From positions 1,281-65,280 of the forward strand of contig CAYLPX010000002.1 of the NCBI GenBank assembly GCA_964385825.1: a stretch of 64,000 nt of DNA. Direction: 5' to 3'. This DNA is from an uncultured Candidatus Saccharibacteria bacterium. GTDB taxonomy: Bacteria > Patescibacteriota > Minisyncoccia > Phycocordibacterales > JAKFXT01. The position numbers were made by a program, and so were the translations under genes. The notes under the pieces were generated by a model, which saw nothing but the letters and a program-made list of their open reading frames with translations, made no database searches and was not told the origin of the DNA. Shown piece after piece: positions 15,971-36,060 of the stretch. Within the stretch, counting starts at the first letter, position 1; the number at the start of each line of letters is the position of its first letter.

Positions 15971-15986
15971 CACGAACTTCAAAAAA

Positions 15987-16029: not shown

Positions 16030-16042
16030 GATAATGCTTTAT

Positions 16043-17651: not shown

Positions 17652-17892
17652 ATGTTAAAAGCTTATGCAAAACCCCTTCCGTTAAAAGAAGTGGTTTTAC
17701 TGGTTATTAATCCTTCCTCGCAAAGTTTTTCCTGTTTCGTCCCCTACTACAAGAGGTACTAAGGAATGGTCTCTCCAACATCTCCGAAAAGTGCTAGAAA
17801 CAGACAAAGAAAAACCTTATAAGCGATAGGGGCAATACTACCAGAGAGGTGTGAATAGTCAATATAAATGTCCTGGGGGTAAACATCAAAAA

Positions 17893-17927
17893 CCCCCGCA
17901 GGACTCCGTCCTGCGGGGATTTTCTTT
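17893..17927 (-). terminator. intrinsic terminator downstream of the 1175 aa giant gene
   Basis: On the minus strand: ccccgcaggacggagtcctgcggggg then tttttgatgttt. Confidence 0.7.
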
Positions 17928-17946
17928 ACGCTACTTTGTTTAACCC

Positions 17947-20900
17947 TTAGTGCTGACTTGCCTTAAGATCTTGAATAAGCTTAGCGAGGGCTGAAATGGC
18001 ATTTGCCATTTGATCCAACCGTTCGTCCTTGAGTGACGCCCCCACTGAACCAAAATCAGTGGCAGGAACAGGAGCAGCAGGAATTCCAATGTAGCCAATG
18101 TACTTGTTTGCACTAGCTCCTGTTGTAAAGCCCCAGAAAACCAAGTTTTGACCCCTATAAGCACTGGCGTCAAAACTAAAGCCGTGATAAAGCGTGGCCG
18201 TACTGCAAGCACTTGCTACAGACTGGGTCGATAAGAGGTTTGCATTTCCTGATCCAACAGCTTGATTGCCAACATAGGCTCCAAAAGTAATAGACTGATT
18301 AACTCCTTTTTCACACATCCAGCCCGTTACTATTCCATCCTGAGTAACATTATCAATAGAGCCCATAACAACCGGGGTGACAGCTGGAGCCACTGGAGCC
18401 TGAACCACTGGTGCTGGAGCCACTGGAGCCTGAACAGCTGAGGCCACCACCTTAACTGGAGTATTTGTTCTGAATAAATATGTATACCCATTAGAAGAGC
18501 CCGGTATTTTTTCAGTGAGATACACAACATCATAATCTCCAGCAACTGCTGGCGCTTTTATTGTTCCACTTCCTTGTAATTGCGCTTGAGTATAAACACC
18601 TGAGTACGAGAGGGCTGGATCCCACTGTTGTCCTGCCTTAGCAAACACAACTAAGTTAGATGGGCCAAGATATGAACTAGACAAATCCCTAACATCCCAC
18701 GTGACTGTAACAAGACCACCTGGCGCAACAGAGGCTGGGGTTGCGGTTAGTTTTAGTGGAATACCTGATTTTGCAGAAACGGGAGAGGATAAGGCACTCA
18801 CATTTCCCGCCGCATCATATGCTTCTACTGTATACGTATACAGAGTATCTGGGGCAAGTGGTCCATCAAGATAATTAAAATTATATGTTGTTACCCCTGT
18901 AATGTTTCCTGTGTCATACCCCGTCACACCCAATGCTGTACCGAGTGTTTTTACCAAAACGCCATTACGGTATATTTTATATCCTGCAACTCCGACATTA
19001 TCATCAGACCTGTTAACCACAACAGTCATGTTTAGATTATTTTCCGCCTTACTAAAGGCTGCTACAAGGGCAATACTTGGAGTAGTTGGGGCTTGTGTGT
19101 CACCAATAGTAGGATTTGTGGTTACAGTAAGAACATTTTTAAACCTCCTCAATTCACTTGGGGCGTTTTCTTGAGTCTGTCCTGTAAGGGGCCATATGGT
19201 ATACGTCGAAGAATATAAAACAATATCATATACACCCGGGGAAGTTGGGGCGTTTTGCTTAGCAGATCCTTTGAGTATGTTGTTCATTGAGATTAGAGGG
19301 AGTCCATTTTGAGCATCTGAGTTATACCCACGGGCAACAAAGCCCAGAAAAGGTTTCGACGGGCTACCGATAGTAGAGATGTCCCAGTCTACGGTAACCA
19401 AAGCGCCCGGCACCACAGAATTAGGAGATATCATTACTGATACTGGATTAATTTCAGTTGATATGAGGAGTGGAGATGATGCCATGGACATGTTTCCAGC
19501 AGCATCTAATGCCTTTATTTCATAATAATAACTTGTGCCTTTTGTAAGGGTACTGTCTGTATAGGTTGTAACGTTGCCAAGTGTGGTAACAAGTACTCCC
19601 CCACGATATAGCTTGTACCCCGTTACTCCCACATTATCAGTTGAAGGAGACCATGAAATAGTTACTGATGTCTGAGTGATACCCGACGAAACTACATTTG
19701 ATGGAATAGATGGTGCTTGAGTATCAGCAGTACCCACTGGACCAGTAATCCTTGTTGTAATGGGCATAATAGAAGACCTTGCTTCATTTCCTCTTGCATC
19801 GAACGCTACAACAATAAAATTATATTTCGTTCCGGGTGTTAAGCCGGATATTGCAATTGATGTAGATGTAGTAGTCCCAACAATAATATCATTTGCCGCA
19901 TTTGGGTCGGAGGAACCTTGCAGTACCCTGTACCCTACTACTCCTACATTATCCGTTGAAGCGGCCCAGGAGAAATTGAACCCTGTCTGTGAAAGACCTG
20001 ATGAAGATAATCCTGTTGGAGCAGTTGGTGGTTGTGTATCTGGGTTTGCACTAGTTGTTATAGTAAGGGGTGATGATTGTGATGAAAGATTCCCAGATGT
20101 ATCCTCAGCAGCTACTGTAAAACTGTATATAGTGCTGGGGGTTAACCCTAAAACGGTATAAAAGTTACCATTAATAACAGCAATCTGTTTTCCATTTTGA
20201 TATAATCTGTAATCTTTAATACCAACATTATCTGTTGATGATTGCCATTGGATAGTTGCGACCGAACCGAGCACATTGTATGAATTTACATTAGTTGGTA
20301 CCGATGGAGCTTGAGTATCATTATTAGCATTAGAAAGCAGTCCTATCTCTGGCGTAGCCACAAGAAAGGCTGTTGACTGAGAAGAAGTGTTACCAGCACT
20401 ATCCTGAGCGCTAACCGTAAAGCTGTAATTGTTTCCAGCAGAAAGACCGGTAACTGCATATGAGGTTGTTTGGGAAGATCCAATTTGAACACCATTCTTA
20501 TAAACCTTGTACACAACGGCCCCACTGTTTCCAATTGAAAATGAAGCGTTCCATGAAAGAGTTAAACTGGTTTGGGTTAAGTTAGATGCACTCAGATTTT
20601 GTGGAATTGATGGACCCTGAGGAACTAAAGCCTGATCCCGAAATCCTACACTACTAGTAGCTGCCACAGGCGCTACGGGAGCAGCAACGTTAGAAGCAAC
20701 TACACTTGCACTAGTTGTGACTGTAAGGCCAGATGACTGTGGAGAAACGTTACCAGCAGCATCAACCGCAGCAACAGAATACGTACCGGTAGTATTTGGC
20801 TGGAAACCAGAGAGCTGAATCTTATTTGAAACCGAAGAGCCAATAAAAGTTCCATTTCTAAAAATCCTATACCCTGTCACCCCAACATTATCAGAAGGGG

Positions 20901-21474
20901 TCGTCCACGTAAGACCGAAACTTACTGTTGTGATGTCAAAAGCACTGAGATTAGTTGGGATGCTTGGTGCTTGGGTATCAGAGGCACTGTTTGAAGCAGC
21001 TGGGGCAACTACAGATGAGGAAGTTGCTGCTACTGATTGCTGATTGTTCGATACCCCATTGTTTGCTGTGGCCACTGGAACCACTGCACCTGAAACGGTG
21101 TTTGAAACTGGTTGAGCAGAAGCCGAGGATGAAGAGCCGCAACTAAGCTCTTTTACCTTCGCCCGCGTAACCGGCCCCACATTACCAATAGGCGAAATAT
21201 TGTTAGCACTCTGGAAAGCTTGAACTGCCTTTTTAGTGAGTTTGCCGAAATAACCTGTTGGGTCAGCATCTAGATAATTAGTTTGAGCTAAGTACACCTG
21301 TAATTCTGTAACGTCTCCTCCCGTATTTTTGTCTCGTGAGCCGAGGACTAGGTTGTGTGTAATGGTAGTACATTCTACTTGTACAGCAGCATCGTTCACT
21401 AAGTCTTGAACTATGGCTTGTGCATTAGCTAGTAGTGGAGCTACTAAGATACTGCTAAGAGCAAAAGATACCAC
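17947..21474 (-). CDS. giant secreted surface protein (1175 aa): N-terminal peptidoglycan-binding-like domain plus multiple fibronectin type III repeats
   Basis: A signal peptide is followed by a PG_binding_1-like segment (TGYFGKLTKKAVQAFQSANNISPIG). Then about 8 FN3-like repeats with the recurring DTQAPSxPxNL ... SDNVGVxGYxxYRNG pattern. Confidence 0.8.
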   Translation of the reverse strand: MVSFALSSILVAPLLANAQAIVQDLVNDAAVQVECTTITHNLVLGSRDKNTGGDVTELQVYLAQTNYLDADPTGYFGKLTKKAVQAFQSANNISPIGNVGPVTRAKVKELSCGSSSSASAQPVSNTVSGAVVPVATANNGVSNNQQSVAATSSSVVAPAASNSASDTQAPSIPTNLSAFDITTVSFGLTWTTPSDNVGVTGYRIFRNGTFIGSSVSNKIQLSGFQPNTTGTYSVAAVDAAGNVSPQSSGLTVTTSASVVASNVAAPVAPVAATSSVGFRDQALVPQGPSIPQNLSASNLTQTSLTLSWNASFSIGNSGAVVYKVYKNGVQIGSSQTTSYAVTGLSAGNNYSFTVSAQDSAGNTSSQSTAFLVATPEIGLLSNANNDTQAPSVPTNVNSYNVLGSVATIQWQSSTDNVGIKDYRLYQNGKQIAVINGNFYTVLGLTPSTIYSFTVAAEDTSGNLSSQSSPLTITTSANPDTQPPTAPTGLSSSGLSQTGFNFSWAASTDNVGVVGYRVLQGSSDPNAANDIIVGTTTSTSIAISGLTPGTKYNFIVVAFDARGNEARSSIMPITTRITGPVGTADTQAPSIPSNVVSSGITQTSVTISWSPSTDNVGVTGYKLYRGGVLVTTLGNVTTYTDSTLTKGTSYYYEIKALDAAGNMSMASSPLLISTEINPVSVMISPNSVVPGALVTVDWDISTIGSPSKPFLGFVARGYNSDAQNGLPLISMNNILKGSAKQNAPTSPGVYDIVLYSSTYTIWPLTGQTQENAPSELRRFKNVLTVTTNPTIGDTQAPTTPSIALVAAFSKAENNLNMTVVVNRSDDNVGVAGYKIYRNGVLVKTLGTALGVTGYDTGNITGVTTYNFNYLDGPLAPDTLYTYTVEAYDAAGNVSALSSPVSAKSGIPLKLTATPASVAPGGLVTVTWDVRDLSSSYLGPSNLVVFAKAGQQWDPALSYSGVYTQAQLQGSGTIKAPAVAGDYDVVYLTEKIPGSSNGYTYLFRTNTPVKVVASAVQAPVAPAPVVQAPVAPAVTPVVMGSIDNVTQDGIVTGWMCEKGVNQSITFGAYVGNQAVGSGNANLLSTQSVASACSTATLYHGFSFDASAYRGQNLVFWGFTTGASANKYIGYIGIPAAPVPATDFGSVGASLKDERLDQMANAISALAKLIQDLKASQH

Positions 21475-21607
21475 TGCGAAACCTTGGACCCACGAAAAAT
21501 TTTAGTAATCATTGTGATTAAATACGGAAGAAAACATTATCTTAATAAGTATCTATAATTAAACCATAGGAAGATGGCGGAGTAAAACGAGCTTAGAGTA
21601 TAAGAAA

Positions 21608-21644
21608 CCCCCTACAAACCCGCTGGTTTGTAGGGGGTTTCTTT
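21608..21644 (-). terminator. intrinsic terminator downstream of the 171 aa gene
   Basis: ccccctacaaacccgctggtttgtaggggg, flanked by T-rich sequence on the minus strand. Confidence 0.65.
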
Positions 21645-21653
21645 AAAAACTTA

Positions 21654-22169
21654 CTATTTAACCTCAAAAAGAATGTCAAAATCATCCACATTATCAATAG
21701 CTCGCCACTTAGTCTTATCCCCCCTCCTCACAAATCCCTGTTCAAGTGAACGGGTCATGCCAAACTCCTTAATAACTGCAATCTCAGTAGTAGTTCCAAG
21801 GGAAGTACACACAATACCTGCCAATTCCCCCTTTAAATACTGGTAATTGGTGCCATTTACCACTTCACAGGTCCCATCATAGTGTCCCGCATCATACTTA
21901 GTACCGAGCTCGTTTAATGTAACAAGGGTTACCGGCTCCTCATGGTCTTCAAAACGAGGTAACTTAGTCAACTTCCAACTAAAAGAATCCCTGGTAATTG
22001 GCACAGGATCTTTTTTGAAACTAGATTTAAGAAAAGAGGAAATGTCGTCATTTTGCCAGACAAAATAATTTGTCCCTACAAGGAAAAAAAGGAGAAGGAT
22101 AAGAGCTCTATTATTTCGTATTCGCTCCTCATTCTTTCGTACAACTTCTTCAATACTCCTTTTACTCAT
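21654..22169 (-). CDS. membrane-anchored hypothetical protein
   Basis: 171 aa with an N-terminal TM anchor (ALILLLFFLVGTNYFVW). Located between the two giant genes. Confidence 0.5.
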   Translation of the reverse strand: MSKRSIEEVVRKNEERIRNNRALILLLFFLVGTNYFVWQNDDISSFLKSSFKKDPVPITRDSFSWKLTKLPRFEDHEEPVTLVTLNELGTKYDAGHYDGTCEVVNGTNYQYLKGELAGIVCTSLGTTTEIAVIKEFGMTRSLEQGFVRRGDKTKWRAIDNVDDFDILFEVK

Positions 22170-22200
22170 GTGGGTTAATTATACATACAAATATACAATT

Positions 22201-22228
22201 AACAGCTCACGTTAAAGCGTGAGCTGTT
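22201..22228 (-). terminator. hairpin downstream of the 2831 aa giant gene
   Basis: aacagctcacgttaaagcgtgagctgtt. Confidence 0.6.
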
Positions 22229-22250
22229 AATAATTAGGCTATGCCAGTAA

Positions 22251-25200
22251 TTATTTCAAGGTTTTAATAAAAGCTCGTGTTCCCGCACCAAAGAAGCCAC
22301 TCCCCCTCGTAAGCCCATTTGGGGTTAAAATCTCTGCTGTGTGAGCTTCTTGGAACTTTGCTAAAGCACGAGAGGTTGCAACACCAAAATAGGTAGTCTC
22401 ATTGCCGAGAGAACCTGCCCCACTACTTGCTACAGTAAATCCATGGATATTAAGGAATTGTTGAAGTAGTCGTACGTCCTCGCCGCGCATACCAACTTTT
22501 AGATTACGGGTAAATGAGCTGGCTGCACTAGTTTGCACTTGTGTTCCAACGGCAGAAGTGGGGGTGGCACTAACAGCCCCGCCACTTGCCGCATTTAATT
22601 TTGCACGAGTAAGCGGCCCCACTAAGCCATATCCTTCAACTGAGCTGTCACAGCCTAATCCTTGTGCACACTGGAACTTTCCAACAGCTGCTTTTGTGGC
22701 TACTCCATAAAAACCACTATCACTCCCAACTTCAAGATATCCAGTTTTAATCAAGAACTGTTGGAGCAACCGCACTTCATTGCTACGAAGCCCCACATAC
22801 AGAGGGTTTTTAAACACCGTGACATATACTACTGCCCCGCTACCAGTGCCAGTACTACCTGTTGATCCGCCAACTGCTCCTATGGCACCATTACCAAGGG
22901 AAAGTGATACACTTCCTCCTGCGCCCGCGTTACTTACTGTACCAGAAGAAGATCCTCCGCTACTTACAGAACCTCCCCCACTACTTCCCGAAGATCCCTT
23001 TACAGGAACTGTTACTGAAGTGGTGGTCATGTCTGAGAAATCACCAGTATCGTTGACTGAGAAAATACCATAATAGTATGTTCGACCCTCATTTACATTC
23101 ACATCAATCATGGTTGGTAGTGTTGTAGTTCCAACCACAATAGCCGCTGCATCATTTGGACCTGTTAGCGTTGAGTCACTTCTAATAACCTTAAAATACA
23201 CCGAACCATCAGGATAATCAGCTGCTGACCAGGAAAGGATAACACTACCAAACGTAACAGCTACAAGATTCGGCTTTGGTGGCAAAGCTTTAGTCTTCAC
23301 CGTGACTACGTTCGAAATCGGAGAGAGATTACCACTGTCGTCTTTTGTACGAACACCAATTGAATACGTAGTGCCCGGTAAAAGATTCTGAAGTTTTAGT
23401 GATTCAGTTAAACCAGCAGCTTCTGGTGCCTTAACTGCATTTGAAGGAAGTAGTGTAGCTGCTGTCCAGTTATCAACTGATATTACGTCATTTGCAATAT
23501 ACCGAACTTCATAAGCAGTTGGTTTTACGAACTGACCTGAGTTTGCTGGCGCACTCCAAGCCAATTGGAGTGCCTTTGCAGCTCGCTCTTTAATATTGAG
23601 GTTGTTAATCGGGGCTAAATTGCTATTAGCTGAAGCAAGAGTGGTGGTCTTAAAGGTACTGTCTTCCGAAACAAGTGGTGCTGTTACCCCATCAGTAATA
23701 CGCACCCTAAAGTGATATAGCGTCCCCGGAAGAAGATTTGGAATAGTCACCACACTACTCATAGCAGCAGCTGCTGATTGCACTTGTCCATATGAAGCTG
23801 TAATTCCGTATTCAACAGTTGCGGTAACTACTCTATCCGCTCCAATTGAAATAACGGCTCCGGTACTACTTGCTGAGGAATTCATACTAAGTAACTTAGG
23901 TGGAGTAACAACAATATTAGAGACAATTACTGAAACATTGCTTGATACTGTCTTATTACCAGCCGCATCACGCGCCTCAGCGGTCAAAACATGAGCGCCG
24001 TTTGTAACTGATTGAGTATTAAAGCTAAAAGTATATGGAGCTGAGACATCCTCAGTAAGTGCCTGTCCATCAACCTTAAGCACTACCCCAACAACGCCAA
24101 CATTGTCAGTTGCAACAGCTGTAACAGCGATAGTCCCGCTCAAACTACCACCAAGATTTGAGTTTGTGATAGATACTGATGGTGCTTGTGTATCACCCGC
24201 GGAAGACCCACCATTATTTACTGGTACAACTGGCACTACAGGTGCTGGTTGAGCTGGATTCCCAGGATTCGCAAAGTTTGGTTGAGTATACCCATTAGTA
24301 AGAGCCGAGGCACGAAGCTTAAACTGACAAGTGTTACCACATGAAAGATTGGAAAGTGTAACTGATTGTGCTGTGCCAGCAGATGCAACTTGAGGCATGT
24401 TTGGCACATTAGTGGCTGCCCAGAAAGCTATATTACTTGCAGGATCGAACTCATAGGTAAACGTGAGGCTATTAAAGTTAAGGTTTGGAACAATATTTTT
24501 ATTTGCATACTTGAGCTGGTACACATCCATACCCGCTGGGGCTGTCCAGGATATCCGGTATGTTCCACCACCAAGTGGTGTAACGTCGAGCGGAACAAAA
24601 CTTACTTTTACATCACCTGCATGAGCCACGTCATAAAGAAAACGTAGATTACCAATATCAGAGTTAGCGACGGTGTCTTGGTCCTTATCAACGTTAACTG
24701 CAAGCTGCTTACCAAGTGTGAGGAATGTTGAATCGCCAGTTGCTTCATAGGCAATAGATGCGCCACGACCAAAATCATAGGTACGTCCATCCTTTGACGT
24801 GTCTGGAACTGTTACATCATAGTCATATGCCACCCACGGCTTACCATTATTCGCAGGGTATCGATAACTCTCTTTTAGGTTAAAGTATCCAAGACCCTCA
24901 AGGAAATCCATGAGATCTTGTTTGGTATAACTTAGTCCTGGATAAGCAGCGTTCTGGTAGACATGCCCCTCTGGCGTATAGCGATACACTTCATAGAGCG
25001 TGGCCGGGAAATACGTTGTTGAGAACATAGAGTGCGATGCTTGTGGGTAGCCATTTACCGGAGCTGCAGTATAACCACGAGTAAGATTGCGTCCCACATC
25101 AGGCTTACCTGGATACTTAGTCTCGGTTGAAAGGAGATAATCTACATACCTATCAATCTTTGTTAGGTAGCGAGTGTTCCCTGTCAGCATGTAAGATTGT

Positions 25201-28200
25201 GCTGCAACTCTCGCGCCAGATAGTCCCAGTCTATACTCAATGTTTCCATCAGCTGCACCACCATAGCGATTATAAGCAGATTCGGCTAACTCAGTAACAG
25301 CGTCTTTATAACGCTCATCGCCCGTGAAGTAATACGACATGAACACGCTATACACCCAGATATGCTCAAAATCATCTTCCATCCCGTTTATTCCGCCATC
25401 AATTGGCTTGGTTGGCACTAAACGATTGTAATGATAATCATTTCTAGCTGTGCCAAAATCAAAGTCATCAGAGTACCAAGGGAACTGATCAGACACGAAG
25501 TGTGTTCGCTCAAGTGCATTTAACATTTGACCTGTGTTTCCATTTCGTACATACGTAAGTTGCCATGCAAGCGCAATATCACGCTGGTTAAGTGTCCCAC
25601 CCTGACTTGAATCCCAAAGACGAGTCACTGCACGGCTACTATTAGGGATAGTAAAGTTAGGCCGGCCATTAGCTGCAAAAATAGTCTGCTGTTCTTGCAT
25701 TGAGGCAAGACGCTTCTCACCAAAGAAAGCGCCAGAGTCACGATACTGCTCAAACGCCGCACGACCAAAAAGTGGTGTCTGGTTTTCAGTATTAATAGCT
25801 GCATTATCAACAGGAGTTGTGTGGAAGTTGAACATTAAATCACGTGACTCATGTACCCCCCAATCGATACCGAGCCCTGTTTTATTGTTACGTTTTGAGA
25901 ATATACCAACTGTTACCTCTCCATTCCCATTGAACTCAAGGCCGGATGGGAAGTAAGCGGCCATATTGCGATAGGCTACAGTAACCCCATCATCATTAGT
26001 ATCTTTAAGTTCTCCATAACCAAGTGCATAGTCAGTAAGATTATCAGCGATGAAATCTTTAACTACTGTTCCATTTTTTACAAACCGAGTTCCAATGTCG
26101 GTTGTGTAGTTAACTGGCGGTATGAAGTACCCACCTATATTCCATTGCCAAAAATCACTGTATGAAGTATCTGCTAGGCGCTTAGTGTACCCCTGGAAAA
26201 GATACACATTGTCACCACTTGCAAGCACCCCAGTTTGATTACCTTTACTTGTTGGCAAACTATATGAAAGGTTTTGTTTTAATGCAGTTCCTAAAACAAG
26301 TTCAAAGGAATTAATCGGGATAACCGAGTGGGTTGCATAGTATGCATTACGTAATACTGGAACCACTTTAACGCTGCTTGAGTTTTTGCTAAAGGTGAGA
26401 TAAAGGGTGTAGCCAAGTGGGGCCTGATTCCCTGCGGCATCCTTAAAACGACCTTCAACTTTTACTACTGATTTAGCTGGACCGTTTTCAGTAACGGTTA
26501 CGGTTGGCGTATCGTAAAGCGATGAGTAAGTTAAGTTACCCGGCAAAGTAAGTACTGCTCCTCCATTATTTCCTGATTCAACGAGTGTAGTACCATTCAC
26601 CACCACCTTATCAAAAATATTGAAACCATTTTTGCGAATAGTGAACTGAGCGACTCCCGTATCAACATTGACCGCATTACCCACGTCAACTGCCATGTTC
26701 GGTCCCCCACTACTACCGGAGCCATTGGTGAGAGTTACAGTAGCAGTCCCCCCTGCTGGAATATTTGCTAATGTATCAACCAAAACCCATTGCAAATTAC
26801 CGCTTGGATGATAACTGAGGGGTTTGAACTGATACACCGCAGCACCAGAAAGACCGAGCTGACTAACTGAACGAATATTATCTCCGTCCTTAAGTGGGAT
26901 ACCGAAAGAAGCTAGGCCGTTTGTTCGAGTTGTACCAGACTCTCCAGATGGAAGGAGTTCATTAATCGTAATAGGGATGTTAAGTGAACCTACATTCAAA
27001 TTAACTCCTGCAGTAACTACATTTGCAGATGTCGATTGAGCAGAATTATTCCCGGCAGCATCATAGGCTGAAACAGCATATGTATAAGACGTGGCAGGCG
27101 AAAGACCTGAATCGACATAGCTACTCGAAAGCGCTGTGCCGATCTGCACACCATTACGAAATACTTTGTAGCCAGTAACTGCTACATTGTCAGTTGCAGC
27201 TGTCCATGAAAGATTTGCTTGGAAAGATGAGGCGGCAGAAACAGAAAGACCTTGTGGGACCGTTGGAGCTTGAACATCCTGTGGCCCTTGATTTTGGTTC
27301 GCAGGCGGAACTTGGTTTACAACAGGAGCTGCTGCTAGAGTTGTAGTACTAACACTTGATGACTGAGCAGAATTATTCCCGGCAGCATCATAGGCTGAAA
27401 CTGTATACGTATACAGTGTTGAGGTGGCTAATCCCGTATCACTATAACTAGCCCCCTGAGAGGTACTAATCTGTGTACCATTACGAAATACTTTGTAACC
27501 AGTAACACCAACATTGTCAGTTGCAGCATTCCAAACAAGCGAAACAGCGTTTGGTGACGTGGGAGTAGTACGAAGATTCTGAGGAATACTTGGGGCCTGT
27601 GCATCGGGAGCACCAGGCTGAACCACCACAGGCGCTACCAATGCTCCGCCAGCCGATGCCCCAGCAGTTGCGGTAAGAGTAACTACTGACATAGTGCCAA
27701 TATTTCCAGCAGCATCATAGGGAATTACTGCGTATGAATATTTGGCCCCCGCTATTAAACCAGAATCTGTATAACTAGTGCCAGATGTTGTAATAGTTAC
27801 TAATTGCTGAGCATCAGCATGACGAGCAATCCTGTAACCAACAACTCCAACATTATCGGTTGCGGCGTTCCAAACAAGGCTTATGGAAGTATTTGAAGTG
27901 GCTTGTGCTGAAAGATTTGAGGCAGCGGAGGGAGCAACTTTATCACTTGGCACTACCCCTTTTACAGCGTTTGGATCTAGCTTATAGAAAAATACTGGCT
28001 CGTTCTTGTGATTATTCACCAAAATGAAAACATTTTTTGAAGGAATATAACTAAAACGAGAGAAGGTAGCATTGTTGGCCCCATTATTAAGAGCCCAGGA
28101 GTTCCTTGGAATGGAACTAAGCGCACTGGTGCCAATTCTTGTAACTGCAAACGTATCTGGATTAATAACGTATATATCCTCCGGCAAAATCACGTGATCG

Positions 28201-30746
28201 ATAGAAATATCTCCGTTTTCATCTGTCGCCTCCCCATTCCAGGCCACATACACATCATCAACTGAATCATAGGCAAAACCAGATCGCCTACCTTTTACAA
28301 TTTCTATGTCTCCCGTAAGAGGTCCTTTATTTACAGAAAGAATTCCAGACGCATTAAGATCGTACCAATAAAGTCCCCCTGCCCCAAAGCGAACAAAGCG
28401 ATGACGCTTAGTATCGATTACAGCAGTGTAGTAACCACTATCATTTTCATTAGGACCACGAACCACCCAAGAGTCAGTTAATGGGCTCCATTCTGAAAGC
28501 GTACCAATACCTGGCCAATTCCATACGTGGCCCGTTGCAGGATCTACAGCGGTACTTGGTACAACGCTACCCCCAAAGTAGGTCACATCTTTCTTTTGCT
28601 CCCAACGATTGTTGTTTATGTCGTAACAATTAAGCTGTTTAGTTGTTCTTTGTCCTGTTGGGTATGGAGCAGTCGTACCAAATCGACAAAAACGATCAAT
28701 AGCAGGAACATACTGTATATAGTTATACGAGTGCACAGAGCGAGGTTGCTGCAAATCAGGATTACCATTTGTATCTGGATAGTACCCCGAAGCCTCAATT
28801 GCGCTGTTAGGATCAACATCTAGACCTGGTTGCCGAATAGTTCTCCATTGAAGCGTGTTTATATCAAACGCATAAATCTCATTTCCATAATAATCATTAT
28901 GCCCCCCACCATGAATATAGAAACGATTACGAGTTGAGTCATAAGTTGCACTACTTTCTGTAAAATAATCGGTGTAGTTCCCCGAAGTTTGATTCCCCGG
29001 CCAAATGAAATCTATTTTCTTAATTTGTGAATTAGGAACGGCATACCATGTTCCTGGAGCCATGGCATCAAGCGGGTTGCTCGCAAGTGGAGCTAAAGTA
29101 GTTGCACCAACTGAGCCTGTTTGAGCTGATGTATTACCAACCATATCTCTCGCCTGTATAGCGTAGGTATAGTTTGTGTTGGCCGAAAGACCAGTATCTT
29201 GGAAATTCAAACTGGCCGTTGAAGCGATTTTGATACCATTTCGATAAATATCGTACATGACAATACCGGCTGCGACATTATCCCGAGCAATGTTCCACGT
29301 AAGATTTACTTGATCGTATGCAGCTCCAACTGCTGTAAGTCCGATTGGAGTTGCTGGAGCAACCGTATCCTGTGTTCCCGCAAGTGAAAGAGAAGACTCC
29401 TTAATCCAACCATCTCTACCTGTATCATTATCTACTTTCCAGAATCGCACGCCGGCAGTATCGGTAACGGGACCCCCCACAATTGAACCTGATATACTTG
29501 AAGCAAGTGTTGCAAAAAGATTTGGTGTATTAACCCCTGGAATCAGGCTTACTACCGAAGTAGGGTTAGCATAGAGAGATGCACCAGACCCACTCTGTAC
29601 CCTTGCTCCGTATGATAGAGCATTTATAGCACTTTGAATGTTGGCGGCCTGTGCCACTACTGCCGGAGCAGCTACTACGTTTTGAGCCACAGCCGCAATG
29701 ACTACAGCTTGAGCGGCAGCCGTAGTAGCAGAAGCAGCAGCAGACTGCCCACTTACATTTCCTGCAGCATCAAAAGCCTGCACTGTATAGGAATAAGATG
29801 TCCCAGCAGTAAGTCCTGTATTTGAATACGTTGTTGCCGCACCGAGTGTGGCAAGTAATACTCCACCACGATAAATCTTATAACCCGTAACCCCAACATT
29901 ATCAGACGAGGCACTCCATGAAAGATTTATTTGTGTAGATGAAATAGAGGAGGCAGTAACATTGGCTGGCACAGAAGGTGGAGTGACATCTGCTACAGCG
30001 GGAACTCCCTGAGAAACAACAACTTGGCCTGATGAAGTTTTACCAAATGCGTCCCACGTAGCGTTACCGTCATTAAGAGTAAAAGCAACACCATTAATGG
30101 GCCTACTCTCCAGCCCAACTAATGAAGCAGCAACTTCTAGCCGTACCCACTGTCCCTTAACTGGAAGTGGCCCCATATACCTGCGGCTAACCGTTCCATC
30201 GGCTCCCCAAGTAATAGTATTTGCCCCCCAATAAGCACGATGCTCCCAACTTCCATCATTAAACTGGAGCATTAACTCTGTGGGAGTATTCGTTGGATCA
30301 AGGTATACATAGACAAAAAGCTTATCTCCCACATTTGGAGTTAGCTTATTTGTTGCATTAGTAAAATAATGTTGATGTCTTCCCGCCTTATTGGCACCCT
30401 GATGAGCAGAGGAACCAGAAAATGGAGCTGGGTTGCTACTTACCCAAGTAAAAGAATCGTCCCCCCCTGCAGTAGCTCCCGCAGGAAGCGCGTCCTCTAT
30501 CCAAACGGTATCAGCAGAACTAATTGCGCCTGCAACTTGAGCCAAAAGTGCCTGCTTCCCACTTTGAGCAAGTAACTTATTAATGCTTTCTCGCAAAGAC
30601 TTAATTTTTGATTCAAGCTCCTCTAGTGTAGGGGGTGCTGACTTACTCTTGCTTATTGCCGCCAATGAAGTAACCGGGTTGATGAAAAAAGTAAACACAA
30701 AAACACTGACCAGTATGAGTTTAAGGATTTGTTTTGTGTTTTGCAT
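22251..30746 (-). CDS. giant secreted multidomain protein (2831 aa): FN3 repeats, Kelch-like beta-propeller, central polysaccharide lyase/hydrolase-like region, Ig-like domain, two C-terminal peptidoglycan-binding repeats
   Basis: Signal peptide MQNTKQILKLILVSVFVFTFFINPVTSLA. Repeated FN3 motifs (DNVGVTGYKxFRNG). A Kelch-like YIHGGGHNDYYGNEIYAFDINTLQWRT. A bacterial Ig-like VVGVVLKVDGQALTEDVSAPYTFSF. C-terminal PG_binding_1-like repeats (VRLLQQFLIKTGYL..GFYGVATKAAVGKFQ, and EDVRLLQQFLNIHGF..YFGVATSRALAKFQ). Confidence 0.8.
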   Translation of the reverse strand: MQNTKQILKLILVSVFVFTFFINPVTSLAAISKSKSAPPTLEELESKIKSLRESINKLLAQSGKQALLAQVAGAISSADTVWIEDALPAGATAGGDDSFTWVSSNPAPFSGSSAHQGANKAGRHQHYFTNATNKLTPNVGDKLFVYVYLDPTNTPTELMLQFNDGSWEHRAYWGANTITWGADGTVSRRYMGPLPVKGQWVRLEVAASLVGLESRPINGVAFTLNDGNATWDAFGKTSSGQVVVSQGVPAVADVTPPSVPANVTASSISSTQINLSWSASSDNVGVTGYKIYRGGVLLATLGAATTYSNTGLTAGTSYSYTVQAFDAAGNVSGQSAAASATTAAAQAVVIAAVAQNVVAAPAVVAQAANIQSAINALSYGARVQSGSGASLYANPTSVVSLIPGVNTPNLFATLASSISGSIVGGPVTDTAGVRFWKVDNDTGRDGWIKESSLSLAGTQDTVAPATPIGLTAVGAAYDQVNLTWNIARDNVAAGIVMYDIYRNGIKIASTASLNFQDTGLSANTNYTYAIQARDMVGNTSAQTGSVGATTLAPLASNPLDAMAPGTWYAVPNSQIKKIDFIWPGNQTSGNYTDYFTESSATYDSTRNRFYIHGGGHNDYYGNEIYAFDINTLQWRTIRQPGLDVDPNSAIEASGYYPDTNGNPDLQQPRSVHSYNYIQYVPAIDRFCRFGTTAPYPTGQRTTKQLNCYDINNNRWEQKKDVTYFGGSVVPSTAVDPATGHVWNWPGIGTLSEWSPLTDSWVVRGPNENDSGYYTAVIDTKRHRFVRFGAGGLYWYDLNASGILSVNKGPLTGDIEIVKGRRSGFAYDSVDDVYVAWNGEATDENGDISIDHVILPEDIYVINPDTFAVTRIGTSALSSIPRNSWALNNGANNATFSRFSYIPSKNVFILVNNHKNEPVFFYKLDPNAVKGVVPSDKVAPSAASNLSAQATSNTSISLVWNAATDNVGVVGYRIARHADAQQLVTITTSGTSYTDSGLIAGAKYSYAVIPYDAAGNIGTMSVVTLTATAGASAGGALVAPVVVQPGAPDAQAPSIPQNLRTTPTSPNAVSLVWNAATDNVGVTGYKVFRNGTQISTSQGASYSDTGLATSTLYTYTVSAYDAAGNNSAQSSSVSTTTLAAAPVVNQVPPANQNQGPQDVQAPTVPQGLSVSAASSFQANLSWTAATDNVAVTGYKVFRNGVQIGTALSSSYVDSGLSPATSYTYAVSAYDAAGNNSAQSTSANVVTAGVNLNVGSLNIPITINELLPSGESGTTRTNGLASFGIPLKDGDNIRSVSQLGLSGAAVYQFKPLSYHPSGNLQWVLVDTLANIPAGGTATVTLTNGSGSSGGPNMAVDVGNAVNVDTGVAQFTIRKNGFNIFDKVVVNGTTLVESGNNGGAVLTLPGNLTYSSLYDTPTVTVTENGPAKSVVKVEGRFKDAAGNQAPLGYTLYLTFSKNSSSVKVVPVLRNAYYATHSVIPINSFELVLGTALKQNLSYSLPTSKGNQTGVLASGDNVYLFQGYTKRLADTSYSDFWQWNIGGYFIPPVNYTTDIGTRFVKNGTVVKDFIADNLTDYALGYGELKDTNDDGVTVAYRNMAAYFPSGLEFNGNGEVTVGIFSKRNNKTGLGIDWGVHESRDLMFNFHTTPVDNAAINTENQTPLFGRAAFEQYRDSGAFFGEKRLASMQEQQTIFAANGRPNFTIPNSSRAVTRLWDSSQGGTLNQRDIALAWQLTYVRNGNTGQMLNALERTHFVSDQFPWYSDDFDFGTARNDYHYNRLVPTKPIDGGINGMEDDFEHIWVYSVFMSYYFTGDERYKDAVTELAESAYNRYGGAADGNIEYRLGLSGARVAAQSYMLTGNTRYLTKIDRYVDYLLSTETKYPGKPDVGRNLTRGYTAAPVNGYPQASHSMFSTTYFPATLYEVYRYTPEGHVYQNAAYPGLSYTKQDLMDFLEGLGYFNLKESYRYPANNGKPWVAYDYDVTVPDTSKDGRTYDFGRGASIAYEATGDSTFLTLGKQLAVNVDKDQDTVANSDIGNLRFLYDVAHAGDVKVSFVPLDVTPLGGGTYRISWTAPAGMDVYQLKYANKNIVPNLNFNSLTFTYEFDPASNIAFWAATNVPNMPQVASAGTAQSVTLSNLSCGNTCQFKLRASALTNGYTQPNFANPGNPAQPAPVVPVVPVNNGGSSAGDTQAPSVSITNSNLGGSLSGTIAVTAVATDNVGVVGVVLKVDGQALTEDVSAPYTFSFNTQSVTNGAHVLTAEARDAAGNKTVSSNVSVIVSNIVVTPPKLLSMNSSASSTGAVISIGADRVVTATVEYGITASYGQVQSAAAAMSSVVTIPNLLPGTLYHFRVRITDGVTAPLVSEDSTFKTTTLASANSNLAPINNLNIKERAAKALQLAWSAPANSGQFVKPTAYEVRYIANDVISVDNWTAATLLPSNAVKAPEAAGLTESLKLQNLLPGTTYSIGVRTKDDSGNLSPISNVVTVKTKALPPKPNLVAVTFGSVILSWSAADYPDGSVYFKVIRSDSTLTGPNDAAAIVVGTTTLPTMIDVNVNEGRTYYYGIFSVNDTGDFSDMTTTSVTVPVKGSSGSSGGGSVSSGGSSSGTVSNAGAGGSVSLSLGNGAIGAVGGSTGSTGTGSGAVVYVTVFKNPLYVGLRSNEVRLLQQFLIKTGYLEVGSDSGFYGVATKAAVGKFQCAQGLGCDSSVEGYGLVGPLTRAKLNAASGGAVSATPTSAVGTQVQTSAASSFTRNLKVGMRGEDVRLLQQFLNIHGFTVASSGAGSLGNETTYFGVATSRALAKFQEAHTAEILTPNGLTRGSGFFGAGTRAFIKTLK

Positions 30747-30870
30747 TGATGAATTAAAAAAATAAAACTAACTAAATTTTAACATTTACTGGCCATACAA
30801 CTAAAGCGGGGGTTGCATAATGCAATTCCCCCTCTTCCTATTTCTTAGTATATACACTTCAAAAGAAAAT

Positions 30871-30898
30871 ACACAGCCCCGCATATGCGGGGCTGTGT
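30871..30898 (-). terminator. intrinsic terminator downstream of fusA
   Basis: Perfect palindrome acacagccccgcatatgcggggctgtgt followed on the minus strand by attttcttttg. Confidence 0.75.
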
Positions 30899-30931
30899 AT
30901 AACTCCTTAAAAGCGCCCGTAATAACAGTTT

Positions 30932-33064
30932 CTACTGGCGACTTTCAATAATATCCTTAGCAACGTTCGCTGGGACAATATCGTAATGGTCAAACTCCAT
31001 AGTAGATGTACCACGTCCCTGAGTAAGTGAGCGGAGAGTGGTGGTATAACCGAACATTTCAGAAAGTGGCACTTTAGCCGAAACTACTTTAAGCCCTGAA
31101 CGATCTCCCATACCCTCAATCTGAGCACGCTTACTTGAAAGATGTCCTGAAATATCTCCCATAAACTGCTCTGGCACTAGTACTTCCACCTTCATAATAG
31201 GCTCAAGGATAACTGGGCCAGCCTTTTGTGCAGCCTCTTGGAGAGCCTGAGAAGCCGCGATCTTGAAAGCGATTTCTGAAGAGTCCACGTCGTGATATGA
31301 CCCATCGTAGAGCTCACAAGAAACATCTACCAGCTTAAAGTGCGCCACAATTCCGCGTTCCATCCCTTCCTTAATACCCTTTTCAACCGCTGGGATGTAT
31401 TCCTGAGGGATAACTCCTCCCTTAATGCTATTTACGAACTCAAAACCTTCAGAACGCTTAGTGTTACGAGGAAGTTCCTCTGGGGCTGGTTCAAGTGGTT
31501 TAATCTTAATCTTAACGTGTCCGTACTGTCCGCGACCTCCTGTCTGCTTCACATACTTAACTTCAGCTTCTGCAGGACGAGTAATAGTTTCTTTGTATGC
31601 TACCTGTGGCTTACCAACATTAGCCTCAACCCCGAACTCACGCTTCATGCGATCAACAATAATTTCAAGGTGAAGTTCACCCATTCCAGAAATAATAGTT
31701 TCGTTAGTTTCAGCGTCCGATGCTATACGGAATGTTGGATCTTCATCAGATAGTTTCTTAAGAGCCACACCCATTTTCTCCTGATCAGCCTTTGTTTTCG
31801 GTTCAATACGAAGAGAGATAACCGGCTCAGGGAATTTAATTTCTTCAAGAATAATAGGGTTCGCTTCATCACAAAAGGTATGTGAAGTACGAGCACTCTT
31901 AAGTCCTACCGCTGCTGCAATTTCTCCAGCGTACACCTTCTTCACTTCTTCGCGATCATTAGCTTGGAGTCGCACAATACGTCCCAAACGTTCCTTTTCT
32001 CCCGTGGTTGCATTGTAAATATATGATCCAGCTTCAATAGTTCCTGAATACACACGGAAGAAAGTAAGTTGTCCTACGAAAGGATCAGCCTGAAGTTTAA
32101 AAGCGAGGGCACAAAATGGCTCCTTGTCATCTGCATGGCGGAAAATTTCTTCGCCGGTGCGAGGATCAAGTCCCTTAATAGCTGGAATATCGAGTGGAGA
32201 AGGTAGAAAATCAACCACCGCATCAAGTACGAGCTGTACTCCCTTATTCTTAAGAGCAGACCCTGCGTATACTGGGAAAATTTCATTAGCAATAACGGCC
32301 TTGCGAAGCAGTGCCTTAAGACGAGGAAGATCAATTTCTTTTCCTTCAAGGTATTCAGTCATGGTAGCCTCATCGTGCTCCACGATACGTTCAACAAGCT
32401 CATGACGATACTTTTCAGCATCAGCTTTAAGATTTTCTGGTATTTCAGCTTCACGAATAGTGTTTCCCATTTCACCCTCAAAGTAGAAAGCTTTCATTTT
32501 AAGAAGGTCGATAACTCCCTCATGTGCATCTTCTTCACCAATAGGGATCTGGAGACGAACTGCCTTTTTATTGAGGCGATCAAGAATACTTGCGTATGAT
32601 CGTTCAAAAGATGCACCAGTACGATCAAGTTTGTTGATGAAACAAATACGTGGCACTGAAGCTTCGTCAGCATAACGCCAGTTAGTTTCTGATTGTGGCT
32701 CTACTCCTGCAACGCCGTCAAACACCACCACAGCTCCGTCTAGCACGCGAAGCGAGCGCTTCACTTCCACGGTGAAATCAATGTGTCCTGGGGTATCGAT
32801 AATATTGAAACGATACTTGGTATCATCCTTAGTCGCATCAGTCTTACCCCAAAAACAAGTGATGGCAGCAGCCGTAATAGTAATACCGCGCTCACGCTCC
32901 TGTTCCATCCAGTCAGTCACAGTCGCCCCATCGTGCACTTCTCCGATTTTATGAGTCATTCCTGTGTAGTAGAGAATGCGCTCAGAGGTAGTAGTCTTGC
33001 CCGCATCAATGTGGGCAATGATACCAAAGTTACGGACGTGCTCTAATGGATAATCGCGGTTCAT
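30932..33064 (-). CDS. fusA: elongation factor G
   Basis: 710 aa; GTPase motifs AHIDAGKTT and DTPGHIDF; EF-G domains IV and V. Confidence 0.95.
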
Positions 33065-33068
33065 ATAA

Positions 33069-33099
33069 TTAGTTTATAGTCTTTAGTTTATAGTCTATA
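33069..33099. repeat. tandem tagtttatagtct motif immediately upstream of the fusA start codon
   Basis: attagtttatagtctttagtttatagtctatag. A related agtttatagt...tagtcttatag motif recurs at 36021-36051, after rpmB. Confidence 0.7.
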
Positions 33100-33970
33100 G
33101 AAGCCCCACAAAAGAAAAAGCCCCTAGATAGGTAGCAAGCAGAATATCATCAAATATCCAAAAAAGAAAGCACGCCGACCCAAGTTTCCGGTCGGCGTGT
33201 AGCTCATGGTATTGGTATAGTCCAAAACTGCAGACTATTACTGTGCGCTCGGGGGGTACTTCATTTTCTTTGTACTCACTTCCTGTGAGGTACCCCCCCC
33301 TGTTCCCCCTATCTACCCAAGGGTAAGTTGGGGAACCCCCACTTCTGCTTTTGGCTTTCGCCTGGTCTGTCGTCTTGTCCGTTCGCACATACGCATATTG
33401 GGTAAGTAACGTTTCGGGAAACTACTAGGACTCTGGCGGACGTTGCGCCATTTTTCGCTTTGGGGTGTTGATCCCTCAACTTGACTCCATTGCCCGTCTT
33501 GAACTTACACGCCAATCGTCTTCTGGCCACAAGAGAGGTAAGGCCGAATCATGGCATACAATACAGGCAACCGACCACGAGTTTCTCTAAGGGGCACCCA
33601 GCAACATACTATACTATTTGCCCAAGATTGCACTGCCTCCAAGGGGCTACTTACTTTCCAAAAAATCAACAAGGGTAGGTTCGTTTTTCAAACTTGTATC
33701 AAGCTCTGTTTCTACTCCTGTGTGGGCTATATGATCAAAAACTGTTTCTGCGATGGTGTGATAGTTTGCGTTAAGGAGTTTCAGTAATAATGCTCTTAGC
33801 TCGTCCTTACACACATCAAGTTTAGGATTCTTAAATTTTGTTTCCATATTAGTTGCTACTAACAATACTACTCCTTAGATAAAAAGGTAAGGTTAAAAAT
33901 CTCGCGTAAGTTTAAGGCACAAAATTTCTGTAAGAAACCCTATTTTGAGATGCAGTACGAGGCGGGGAAT

Positions 33971-34011
33971 GAAAAAAGTCACTAGCTGTACAAGTAGTAC
34001 TGCTAGCGACT
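33971..34011 (-). terminator. intrinsic terminator downstream of rpsG
   Basis: Minus-strand hairpin (aagtcgctagcagtactacttgtacagctagtgactt, one mismatch) followed by tttttt. Confidence 0.6.
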
Positions 34012-34112
34012 TTTTCAAATTATTTAAAGTTATACTACCTATTCGTAACTTCAGAAAGTTCCTCAGGGCGCTCCATTTTGCAGTTGGAATTTACTTCGCT
34101 TGCGCTCGTAAA

Positions 34113-34583
34113 TTACCAAGCAAAATGGGCGAAGGCTTTGTTGGCTTCTGCCATTTTGTGAGTATTCTCGCGCTTCTTCATAGCCTCACCTTCATTCTTG
34201 AAAGCAGCCATAAGTTCATCAGCAAGCTTCTCAGCCATAGGCTTACCCTTCTTTGAAGAAGCCGCGTCAATGATCCAGCGGAAAGCAAGAGCTTGCTTAC
34301 GCTCTGGACGCACCTCACGAGGTACTTGATAGTTAGCTCCACCCACACGGCGTGAACGTACTTCCATGTTTGGTGCAACATTGCGAATAGCTGTTTCGAA
34401 AACTTCAAGAGGATTCTCCACCTTTGCCTTTTCCTTGATAGTATCGAGGGCTCCGTATACTACCTTAGTAGCAGTTACACGCTTACCATCCTTCATCACA
34501 CAGTTGATGAACTTCCCTACTACATCTGACTTGTAGGTAAGGTCGGGTTTTGCAATATTTCGATTTTTAACTTTTCGACGCAT
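34113..34583 (-). CDS. rpsG: 30S ribosomal protein S7
   Basis: 156 aa; S7 family; downstream of rpsL. Confidence 0.9.
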   Translation of the reverse strand: MRRKVKNRNIAKPDLTYKSDVVGKFINCVMKDGKRVTATKVVYGALDTIKEKAKVENPLEVFETAIRNVAPNMEVRSRRVGGANYQVPREVRPERKQALAFRWIIDAASSKKGKPMAEKLADELMAAFKNEGEAMKKRENTHKMAEANKAFAHFAW

Positions 34584-34602: not shown

Positions 34603-35031
34603 TTACTTTTTAGCTACAGCTCCTTCCTTAGGACGCTTGTTACCGTATCGGCTGCGGGCCTGGCGACGCTTCTCAACACCTGAGGCATCAAGCACACCAC
34701 GAACAATGGTGTAACGAAGTCCGATATCCTTTACACGACCACCACGAATCATAACCACTGAGTGCTCTTGCAAGTTATGTCCTTCTCCTGGGATATAGGC
34801 AGTTACTTCCATACCATTAGTAAGACGTACACGCGCAATCTTACGAATAGCTGAGTTAGGTTTCTTAGGAGTTTTGGTAGTTACCTTAGTGCACACACCA
34901 CGCTTGAAAGGAGAAGCATAGAACATTGGCTTGTTTTTCACGAGGTTAAAACCACGTGTCAAAGCCACCGTTTTACTCTTACGGATTGGTGATTTGCGGG
35001 ATTTCCGCACAAGCTGGTTGATGGTAGACAT
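34603..35031 (-). CDS. rpsL: 30S ribosomal protein S12
   Basis: [13 protein letters not shown]...; S12 family with a C-terminal basic tail. Confidence 0.9.
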
Positions 35032-35774: not shown

Positions 35775-36017
35775 ATGGCAAAATCTTGCGCAATCACCAA
35801 TAAGACTTCAATCGTAGGCGGGGGCTACTCGAACGAGACTCGTGCTACCCAGTTCAACCCTACTGGCAAGCGTCGCCGCCATGTGAACCTCCAAAAGAAG
35901 CGTATTTTCATACCTGAACTCAACAAGAGTATGACCCTTACCCTCTCAACAGCTGCTATCCGTACTATCAACAAGAATGGGGCTTACGCCACACTCAAGA
36001 AGGCAGGACTCATCTAA
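35775..36017 (+). CDS. rpmB: 50S ribosomal protein L28
   Basis: 80 aa; MAKSCAITNKTSIVGGGYSNETRATQ...; L28 family. Confidence 0.8.
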   Translation: MAKSCAITNKTSIVGGGYSNETRATQFNPTGKRRRHVNLQKKRIFIPELNKSMTLTLSTAAIRTINKNGAYATLKKAGLI

Positions 36018-36060
36018 AACAGTTTATAGTTTTTAGTGGATAGTCTTATAGAAAACAAAA

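Follow-up and report, generated by a model that had tools for sequence, protein, structure and literature searches.

The str operon of Escherichia coli and Bacillus subtilis consists of rpsL, rpsG, fusA and tufA separated by tens of bases, and secondary promoters make tuf partly autonomous. Here we examined the corresponding str cluster in a 64,000-nt stretch of contig CAYLPX010000002.1 (assembly GCA_964385825.1), an assembly of metagenomic origin; this whole stretch is referred to as the window. The same genes are found in the same order, but the cluster differs from the canonical operon in having gaps of 1.0 and 13.3 kb, strong terminators after rpsG and fusA, four extra genes inside it, an M50 protease gene before rpsL, and Shine-Dalgarno (SD) sequences that are almost absent. 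We consider it probable that the str cluster has been kept here as a gene order but no longer as an operon, with junctions that tolerate insertions and receive recurrent secreted cargo.

Two sets of published observations are closest to this arrangement. The super-cluster of translation and transcription genes in Gammaproteobacteria is described as split in some lineages by multigene insertions between operons (Brandis, Cao and Hughes 2019, PMC6735719). The likeness is that lineage-specific multigene insertions break a conserved order while the flanking order is kept, whereas the breaks in the window lie inside what is normally a single operon, and inside the S10 cluster, and recur across a class of the Candidate Phyla Radiation (CPR) with a preferred type of cargo. 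The second set concerns the cargo itself. Patescibacteria are reported to carry ∼15 proteins of >1,500 aa per genome, and in many of these a signal peptide is combined with FN3 or adhesion domains (PMC13059738). The surface proteins encoded in the window resemble such giants, for example those of an Absconditicoccaceae epibiont, in a length of >1,500 aa, a signal peptide, FN3/Ig-like repeats and a presumed host contact, but differ in adding PG_binding_1 anchors and Kelch and PcRGLX-like domains. As far as we found in the literature, the location of giant surface proteins between fusA and tuf has no earlier description.

The str cluster in the window and in related genomes

Gene identities were taken from a listing of open reading frames (ORFs) together with Pfam scans, and coordinates are positions in the window. 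Both sources confirmed the minus-strand order rpsL, rpsG, fusA, tuf, rpsJ. In the direction of transcription the genes are as follows.

35111-35719, minus strand: Peptidase_M50-like membrane protease gene (Pfam PF02163, E 2.7e-14)
34603-35031, minus strand: rpsL, ribosomal protein S12 (Pfam PF00164, E 3e-34)
34113-34583, minus strand: rpsG, ribosomal protein S7 (Pfam PF00177, E 4e-59)
33647-33847, minus strand: sORF66, gene for a 66-aa conserved hypothetical protein (called in JGI and ENA assemblies)
30932-33064, minus strand: fusA, elongation factor G (EF-G), 710 aa (all five EF-G Pfam domains)
22251-30746, minus strand: secreted multidomain protein, 2,831 aa (Pfam, signal peptide)
21654-22169, minus strand: single-pass membrane protein, 171 aa (unannotated family of small proteins)
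17947-21474, minus strand: secreted protein, 1,175 aa, or 1,150 aa in the JGI call (Pfam, signal peptide)
16452-17651, minus strand: tuf, elongation factor Tu (EF-Tu; three EF-Tu Pfam domains)
16043-16414, minus strand: rpsJ, ribosomal protein S10, which opens the S10 cluster 37 nt 3' of tuf (Pfam PF00338)

The distance between rpsG and fusA is 1,048 bp (33065-34112) and that between fusA and tuf is 13,280 bp, of which three inserted genes cover 12.8 kb. With sORF66, four extra genes (encoding 66, 2,831, 171 and 1,175 aa) lie within the rpsL-tuf cluster. A single-unit str operon would show the proper genes in order on one strand, tight spacing without foreign genes, and no strong internal terminators; the first of these features is retained and the other two are lost, six hairpin-plus-T structures being predicted between the members. 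These coordinates and Pfam identities agree with the first-pass annotation of this DNA, which described a str cluster split by terminators of its own and by a 12.8-kb block of two giant surface-protein genes and a small membrane-protein gene between fusA and tuf. The inserted genes are also co-oriented, as it noted, all being on the minus strand, although this says little, since that strand holds almost every gene between 1 and 52 kb of the window.

We located rpsL, rpsG, fusA, tuf and rpsJ in at least 160 loci from GTDB species representatives and metagenomes; the Patescibacteria-like set comprised at least 100 loci with an EF-G at least 61.5% identical to that of the window. All identities and counts for relatives given below hold among the matches listed by these searches. 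The window EF-G was 76-78% identical to its best matches among GTDB species representatives, which are metagenome-assembled genomes of Kaiserbacteria, Minisyncoccia, Paceibacterota and 'Patescibacteria group', and 81% identical to that of the best metagenome contig, in alignments spanning residues 1-710. Because EF-G was at most 81% identical to any of these, the organism is, as judged from this protein, a Patescibacterium of the class Paceibacteria without a close sequenced relative.

In the 63 loci with both genes, the fusA-tuf gap had a median of 758 bp; it was <300 bp in 12 loci and at least 3 kb in eight, with a maximum of 6.6 kb, and 14 further loci had at least 3 kb of sequence 3' of fusA without tuf. 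The rpsG-fusA gap reached 500 bp or more in 23/79 loci (maximum 7,388 bp). Gaps in non-Patescibacteria loci found by the same scans were mostly 35-250 nt. An M50 homologue was present 5' of rpsL in most related loci and is therefore a conserved neighbour in the lineage. The contents of the gaps differed from genome to genome and were not orthologous. Between fusA and tuf, the closest relatives (L092 and L117, 81% EF-G identity) have two small ORFs, known by translation only, one of which is receiver-domain-like (response regulator) and the other of unconfirmed identity; a further relative (L073) has a gap of 450 nt only; and another (L040, 2229-5984) has a gene for a 1,251-aa PG_binding_1 protein. 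A 2,010-aa subtilase (Peptidase_S8) and FN3 protein is encoded between rpsG and fusA in yet another locus (L019, 3750-9782).

The architecture had been called unusual. This is so when it is set against textbook bacteria, and in size it is an outlier, but both junctions are routinely expanded in related Patescibacteria. Synteny comparison thus found the break-up itself to be typical of the lineage, recurrent though not universal, which removes most of the case for a peculiarity of this genome. In the window, a loosening of the str cluster that is typical of the lineage has gone to an extreme, and size alone sets it apart.

Transcription units and translation starts

Hairpin folds were compared with those of shuffled sequences (z; 200 shuffles at the rpsG hairpin), and promoters were sought by a consensus scan. 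The elements of the cluster identified in this way, together with the non-coding stretch and the repeated module discussed below, are the following.

36011-36058, minus strand: second copy of the 46-nt module (39/46 positions identical to the fusA copy)
33972-34016, minus strand: 45-nt hairpin terminator 3' of rpsG (dG -25.6 kcal/mol, z -8.3, 0/200 shuffles as stable)
33200-33646, minus strand: non-coding stretch of ∼450 nt from the sORF66 stop to the second terminator (GC ∼51% vs ∼44% background)
33158-33199, minus strand: second terminator, hairpin 33171-33199 plus T-tract, closing the sORF66 unit ∼95 nt before the fusA ATG (dG -25.7, z -5.6)
33062-33108, minus strand: 46-nt promoter-like module ending in the fusA ATG and including AGACTATAAACTA twice (sequence, motif search, alignment)
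30869-30900, minus strand: terminator 3' of fusA (14-bp stem, 9 GC pairs, T-run, dG -31.7, z -9.1)
22198-22231, minus strand: hairpin 3' of the 2,831-aa gene (14-bp stem, dG -20.9, z -6.3)
21602-21643, minus strand: hairpin terminator 3' of the 171-aa gene (19-bp stem, dG -33.9, z -7.6)
17888-17924, minus strand: hairpin terminator 3' of the 1,175-aa gene, with A-/T-run flanks (dG -31.5, z -6.6; also detected on the plus strand)
17835-17862, minus strand: sigma-70-like promoter candidate for tuf, TTGACT, 16 nt, TG-TAGTAT (consensus match only, 9/12 with TG)

The hairpins at 33972-34016, 33171-33199, 30869-30900 and 17888-17924 clearly have the make-up of intrinsic terminators, while those at 22198-22231 and 21602-21643 have strong stems with weaker T-tracts. 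Terminators had been predicted for both rpsG and fusA, and the structures at 33972-34016 and 30869-30900 bear this out. The rpsG stem is flanked by an A-run and a T-run, and this terminator could be bidirectional. With respect to starts of transcription, the tuf promoter candidate lies ∼180 nt before the tuf ATG, past the terminator of the 1,175-aa gene. A TATAAT is found 3' of the hairpin at 22198-22231, 8 nt ahead of the ATG of the 171-aa gene, and a TTTAAT is found 6 nt ahead of that of the 2,831-aa gene. The consensus scan gave no conventional sigma-70 match directly upstream of the 2,831-aa or the 1,175-aa gene. As far as sequence can show, the interval appears to be a row of at least six autonomous units.

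The first-pass annotation placed a 1 kb spacer before fusA. The distance is right (1,048 bp), but the interval is not empty, since it holds the 66-aa gene, ∼450 nt of non-coding DNA and the second terminator. The sole homologue of sORF66 that we found also encodes 66 aa, with 67% identity, on a Logan contig (L172, 4528-4728; SRR24236059) that has 51% GC and no str genes near; there its neighbours are a hypothetical gene on one side and, on the other, a glycosyltransferase gene in convergent orientation. sORF66 is conserved yet not syntenic, and belongs to no family among Pfam or PHROG. Because independent pipelines called it and its homologue stands in an unrelated context, we regard it as a real small gene that moves between contexts.

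We also considered whether the rest of this interval (33150-33646) might be a lineage-private structured RNA, either a stand-alone non-coding RNA or a long attenuator-type leader regulating fusA. Such an RNA would account for ∼450 nt in which no assembly has a called gene (33200-33646), for the raised GC and several long G/C-rich hairpins, and for the strong terminator that closes the interval ∼95 nt before fusA. The fold z of the whole non-coding stretch was -2.3, and in sliding windows the signal was limited to ∼33140-33410 (z -3 to -4); 33410-33650, half of the interval, folded no better than shuffles, and in part of the region the plus strand scored equal to the minus strand. Rfam 15, applied to the rpsG-fusA interval at the gathering threshold and at E<=10, returned no family, the best match (E ∼1) being the terminator hairpin alone. 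Neither nhmmer, blastn, tblastx nor blastx revealed a homologue of the non-coding stretch among the matches listed for 171 related loci, and phage genomes and viral contigs gave none when searched. The contig with the sole homologue of the 66-aa gene also has no such region 3' of it. We therefore consider this explanation unlikely, a lineage-private RNA in the stretch being possible but unsupported.

Immediately before fusA, a tandem repeat had been described as abutting the ATG. The repeat is exact, with copies of AGACTATAAACTA at 33070-33082 and 33084-33096, but it lies 5 nt away from the ATG and does not strictly abut it. With up to 2 mismatches allowed, AGACTATAAACTA had 7 matches in the window vs 2.1 expected, and 4/7 were in the two tandem sites. 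It forms part of the 46-nt module, the sequence of which is TTCTAT(A)AGACTATnnACTAAAnACTATAAACTnnTT(T)AnATGA; the conserved span consists of a -35-like TTCTAT, an 18-nt spacer, TATAAA, 8 nt and the ATG, and so resembles a promoter that would yield a leaderless mRNA. The second copy of the module begins 10 nt past a strong hairpin at 36057-36101, overlaps the stop region of rpmB and lies upstream of the M50-rpsL-rpsG unit, and it ends in an ATG that opens merely a 9-codon ORF antisense to rpmB. Neither the window nor ∼25 kb of additional sequence from the same strain yielded a third copy.

It is true that fusA has no SD, as had been pointed out, but this is a genome-wide trait and not specific to fusA. 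A GGAG-type motif at the right distance precedes almost none of the ∼55 genes of the window, and the fusA genes of relatives are SD-less with A/T-rich upstream sequence as well (∼1/3 of them with a hairpin-plus-T-run just upstream), so that the missing SD is a property of the genome. Start codons in the window are preceded by A/T-rich sequence, and for several genes that come first in their units a -10-like hexamer stands 6-9 nt upstream of the ATG, which suggests SD-independent, partly leaderless initiation genome-wide. A window-wide test of the spacing of such hexamers gave 9/31 hits, some of them inside operons, a weakly suggestive enrichment. In the leaderless mRNAs of Actinobacteria and Deinococcus, a -10 element is found 6-9 nt upstream of the start codon. 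The fusA (TATAAA) and 171-aa (TATAAT) genes of the window are similar in that each has its hexamer 8 nt before the ATG and no SD, and both are candidates for leaderless transcripts; the window differs from those bacteria in that the enrichment of -10 elements across it is weak.

A different and short fusA leader was conserved over the 60 nt upstream of the gene in Kaiserbacteria-like loci (L002-L005, L007, L010, L012, L027, L093, L100 and L104). In it, a -10-like TATCTT, TATTGT or TACACT is followed by a small hairpin ('AACGC...GCG') and a T-run, after which ∼20 nt of A/T-rich sequence lead to an SD-less ATG. The hairpin could be the rpsG terminator or a 5'-terminal stabilising hairpin. This leader is absent from the window.

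The surface-protein block after fusA

The 2,831-aa protein begins with a signal peptide (MQNTKQILKLILVSVFVFTFFINPVTSLA) and contains, according to Pfam, five FN3 domains, a Kelch-like propeller, RGI-lyase-like and PcRGLX-like beta-sandwiches, Big_7 and two C-terminal PG_binding_1 domains; its central 950 aa (residues 1250-2200) gave no PDB match by sequence. In the 1,175-aa protein an N-terminal PG_binding_1 domain (aa 51-106) is followed by five FN3 domains and an unannotated C-terminus. The FN3 blocks of the two proteins are paralogous (31-60% identity). Database relatives of the 1,175-aa protein were FN3-repeat matches alone, with 28-41% identity and the names 'chitodextrinase' or 'fibronectin type III domain-containing protein', and the database search returned no orthologue outside the strain. 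The 171-aa protein between them has an N-terminal transmembrane helix, a ∼110-aa all-beta ectodomain and two invariant cysteines.

Both large proteins combine a secretion signal, an envelope anchor and Ig/FN3-like repeats, the structural marks of surface adhesins, and at the level of predicted domains they are demonstrated to be wall-anchored secreted multidomain proteins. The term adhesin, applied to them in the first-pass annotation, agrees with the signal peptides, PG_binding_1, FN3 and Big_7 but is a label drawn from domain content only. Such a role is plausible by analogy with other Patescibacteria (PMC13059738), and the Kelch and PcRGLX-like domains could equally serve in glycan binding or glycan processing.

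To follow this type of cargo in relatives, we built a PG_binding_1 profile from the domains of the window and searched at least 100 Patescibacteria-like loci. We identified 15 PG_binding_1 domains in 11/100 loci. Eleven of the 15, from 7 loci (L009, L011, L023, L026, L040, L099 and L115), were in the stretch downstream of fusA, which made up 15% of the sequence covered by the search (binomial P 7.5e-7 when counted by domain and 3.5e-4 when counted by locus, 7/11, with loci treated as independent). Pfam confirmed PG_binding_1 in L009, L011, L023, L026 and L040. The proteins downstream of fusA share an N-terminal module in which a signal peptide and a short helical segment precede PG_binding_1; alignment of this module from residue 1 gave 30-44% identity. 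Those of L009, L011, L023, L026 and L099, and two of the four in L115, align with one another from residue 1 (∼26-38% identity), and the 1,175-aa protein of the window aligns with them through the PG_binding_1 region (30-46%). The passenger domains that follow towards the C-terminus are diverse (cupredoxin, TIG, PKD and DUF4214 by Pfam). The association of wall-anchored secreted proteins with the fusA/tuf slot is recurrent, not universal.

It had been suggested that the position of the surface genes couples their expression to growth rate, which would require them to lie inside a functional translation-factor operon and to be transcribed by read-through with fusA and tuf. All genes concerned are contiguous and co-oriented, the 2,831-aa and 1,175-aa genes have no conventional sigma-70 match directly upstream, and the recurrence of PG_binding_1 after fusA in relatives could reflect selection for expression context. 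However, six hairpin-plus-T terminators bracket every unit. The fusA hairpin, with its 14-bp stem, 9 GC pairs and T-run, is followed by similarly strong hairpins after each inserted gene, which argues against coupling by co-transcription. The TATAAT and TTTAAT hexamers near the ATGs of the 171-aa and 2,831-aa genes fit start sites of their own, the promoter-like site of tuf is downstream of a terminator, and co-orientation says little where nearly all genes share one strand. Growth-rate coupling through operon position is thus not borne out, and we consider it quite improbable.

Recent arrival of the block as a genomic island or mobile element that happened to land between fusA and tuf would agree with the absence of the 12.8-kb block from the closest relatives (L092/L117 and L073, among the matches listed) and with the failure of the database search to find an orthologue of the 1,175-aa protein outside the strain. 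The composition of the block tells against it. The three inserted genes have a GC content of 0.40-0.45 and a GC content at third codon positions (GC3) of 0.30-0.37 (0.45 and 0.31 for the 2,831-aa gene), like housekeeping genes and unlike the foreign-looking GC-rich ORFs elsewhere in the window (GC3 0.66-0.85), indicating that they are long-resident. No integrase or transposase was found by Pfam, nor any tRNA gene in 16-36 kb or flanking repeats. The paralogy of the two giant proteins suggests expansion in place, and proteins at the same position in relatives share their N-terminal module with the 1,175-aa protein. Recent acquisition is consequently very unlikely. An assembly or binning chimera of ribosomal and unrelated surface-protein genes, which a metagenome source and repeat-rich giant genes that are hard to assemble might have produced, can be dismissed as having next to no probability because at least six JGI samples (3300045345-54), one ENA assembly (ERZ4216102) and two Logan runs (SRR23702459/505) span all junctions with the same arrangement at 99.97-100% identity, the composition is uniform across the junctions, and the sole discrepancy, the giant gene being called in two parts in L082, goes back to a run of N. 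We rejected the apparent strain variant in L082 on account of this assembly gap.

The explanation we prefer is that of a str cluster retained as gene order and no longer as an operon. The M50-rpsL-rpsG, 66-aa, fusA, 2,831-aa, 171-aa, 1,175-aa and tuf-rpsJ units would each be closed by a strong intrinsic terminator, at which we infer efficient termination, and each would presumably start from its own promoter. Initiation would be SD-independent throughout the genome, with fusA and the 171-aa gene possibly leaderless. Since units of this kind would be autonomous, the rpsG/fusA and fusA/tuf junctions would tolerate insertions, and they hold different genes in almost every genome of the lineage. 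The fusA/tuf slot repeatedly houses genes for secreted, peptidoglycan-anchored proteins with a shared N-terminal module and variable passengers, and in the window it would have grown by expansion of FN3 repeats and by paralogy to contain two giant wall-anchored proteins, which may act in host contact, and a small membrane protein.

Several points weigh against this explanation. The closed gap of 13.3 kb is ∼2x the largest closed gap found elsewhere (6.6 kb), making the window a size outlier, and the relatives are distant (EF-G <=81% identical), so that the age of the insertions and their true frequency in the lineage are uncertain. Hairpin terminators can leak, which would permit partial read-through from fusA, and tuf alone has a conventional promoter-like match, the promoters of the other units being guesses. 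Finally, the enrichment test for PG_binding_1 assumes independent loci, and open-ended downstream DNA was counted as 'between fusA and tuf'.

Other features of the window and meaning of the locus

The S10 cluster downstream of tuf is also interrupted. At 10861-12490, between rplB and rpsS, a 1.6-kb GC-rich insert (up to 65% GC vs 44% background) contains hairpin terminators and two SD-bearing ORFs of 143 aa (minus strand) and 189 aa (plus strand, GC3 0.75). Neither ORF belongs to a Pfam or PHROG family, and a search of 5.8 billion proteins gave no homologue of the GC-rich 189-aa ORF; independent assemblies contain this insert as well. Within a gap of 1.07 kb between rpsJ and rplC (14969-16042) there are two ORFs, one of 139 aa on the opposite strand (15508-15927) and one of 83-104 aa, as well as a long inverted repeat (15979-16031); no family was found. 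On the other side of the str genes, a hydrophobic 139-aa ORF at 36174-36593 (plus strand, 65% GC, GC3 0.85) with a strong AAGGAG SD adjoins rpmB and lies between long hairpins at 36057-36101 and 36643-36666 (region 36057-36666). No family was found for this ORF, which looks foreign in an otherwise SD-less genome. We rejected the idea that a single element gave rise to both the rpsG-fusA island and the other GC-rich islands, the shared similarity being the 46-nt module alone. Rfam searches of the GC-rich islands gave hairpin look-alikes alone.

An orphan, near-perfect mimic of the 23S rRNA L1 stalk was identified at 43266-43347 on the minus strand (flanks 43196-43440), between pgk and a HIT-family gene and with no rplK or rplA nearby. 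It corresponds to helices 76-78 (model positions 2130-2211; 47.7-53.8 bits, E ∼1e-13), with a tRNA T-arm-like GGTTCGACTCC segment on its 5' side and a strong terminator hairpin on its 3' side, and could represent a small RNA or else an element bound by L1. The window also contains a complete tRNA-Gly(TCC) at 61628-61699 and, at its end, a partial tRNA (63944-64000, minus strand, Rfam 31 bits). Beyond the window start, a contig of the same strain (L173, 10408-16910) continues with map and a 124-aa ORF, and then with genes for an ATPase of 907 aa (DUF87/TraG-like, type IV secretion-type) and an unannotated protein of 1,236 aa; infA-rpmJ-rpsM-rpsK-rpsD-rpoA are not at their usual place after the spc cluster.

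Taken as a str cluster that survives as gene order, the locus adds to the conserved translation clusters that insertions have loosened, and giant surface proteins are already familiar from its phylum. It carries three cautions for the annotation of CPR genomes: gene order does not equal an operon, a missing SD is uninformative, and 'spacers' may hide small real genes. If the excess of PG_binding_1 after fusA survives phylogenetic correction, it would mark a defined locus at which the surface and host-contact proteins of episymbionts diversify, and this locus would be a useful handle on host range in uncultured Patescibacteria.

A more ambitious reading, which we put forward only tentatively and hold to be rather doubtful, is that Paceibacteria maintain a post-fusA slot for a diversifying wall-anchored family and that the split cluster is co-regulated in trans via the duplicated 46-nt module. 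The giants of the window may then be the most expanded form of a family with FN3, cupredoxin, TIG, PKD, DUF4214 and unannotated C-termini as passengers, and the module copies may act at the fusA ATG, giving a leaderless mRNA, and upstream of the M50-rpsL-rpsG unit. If this were true, the link between translation-factor and surface genes would be selected rather than accidental.

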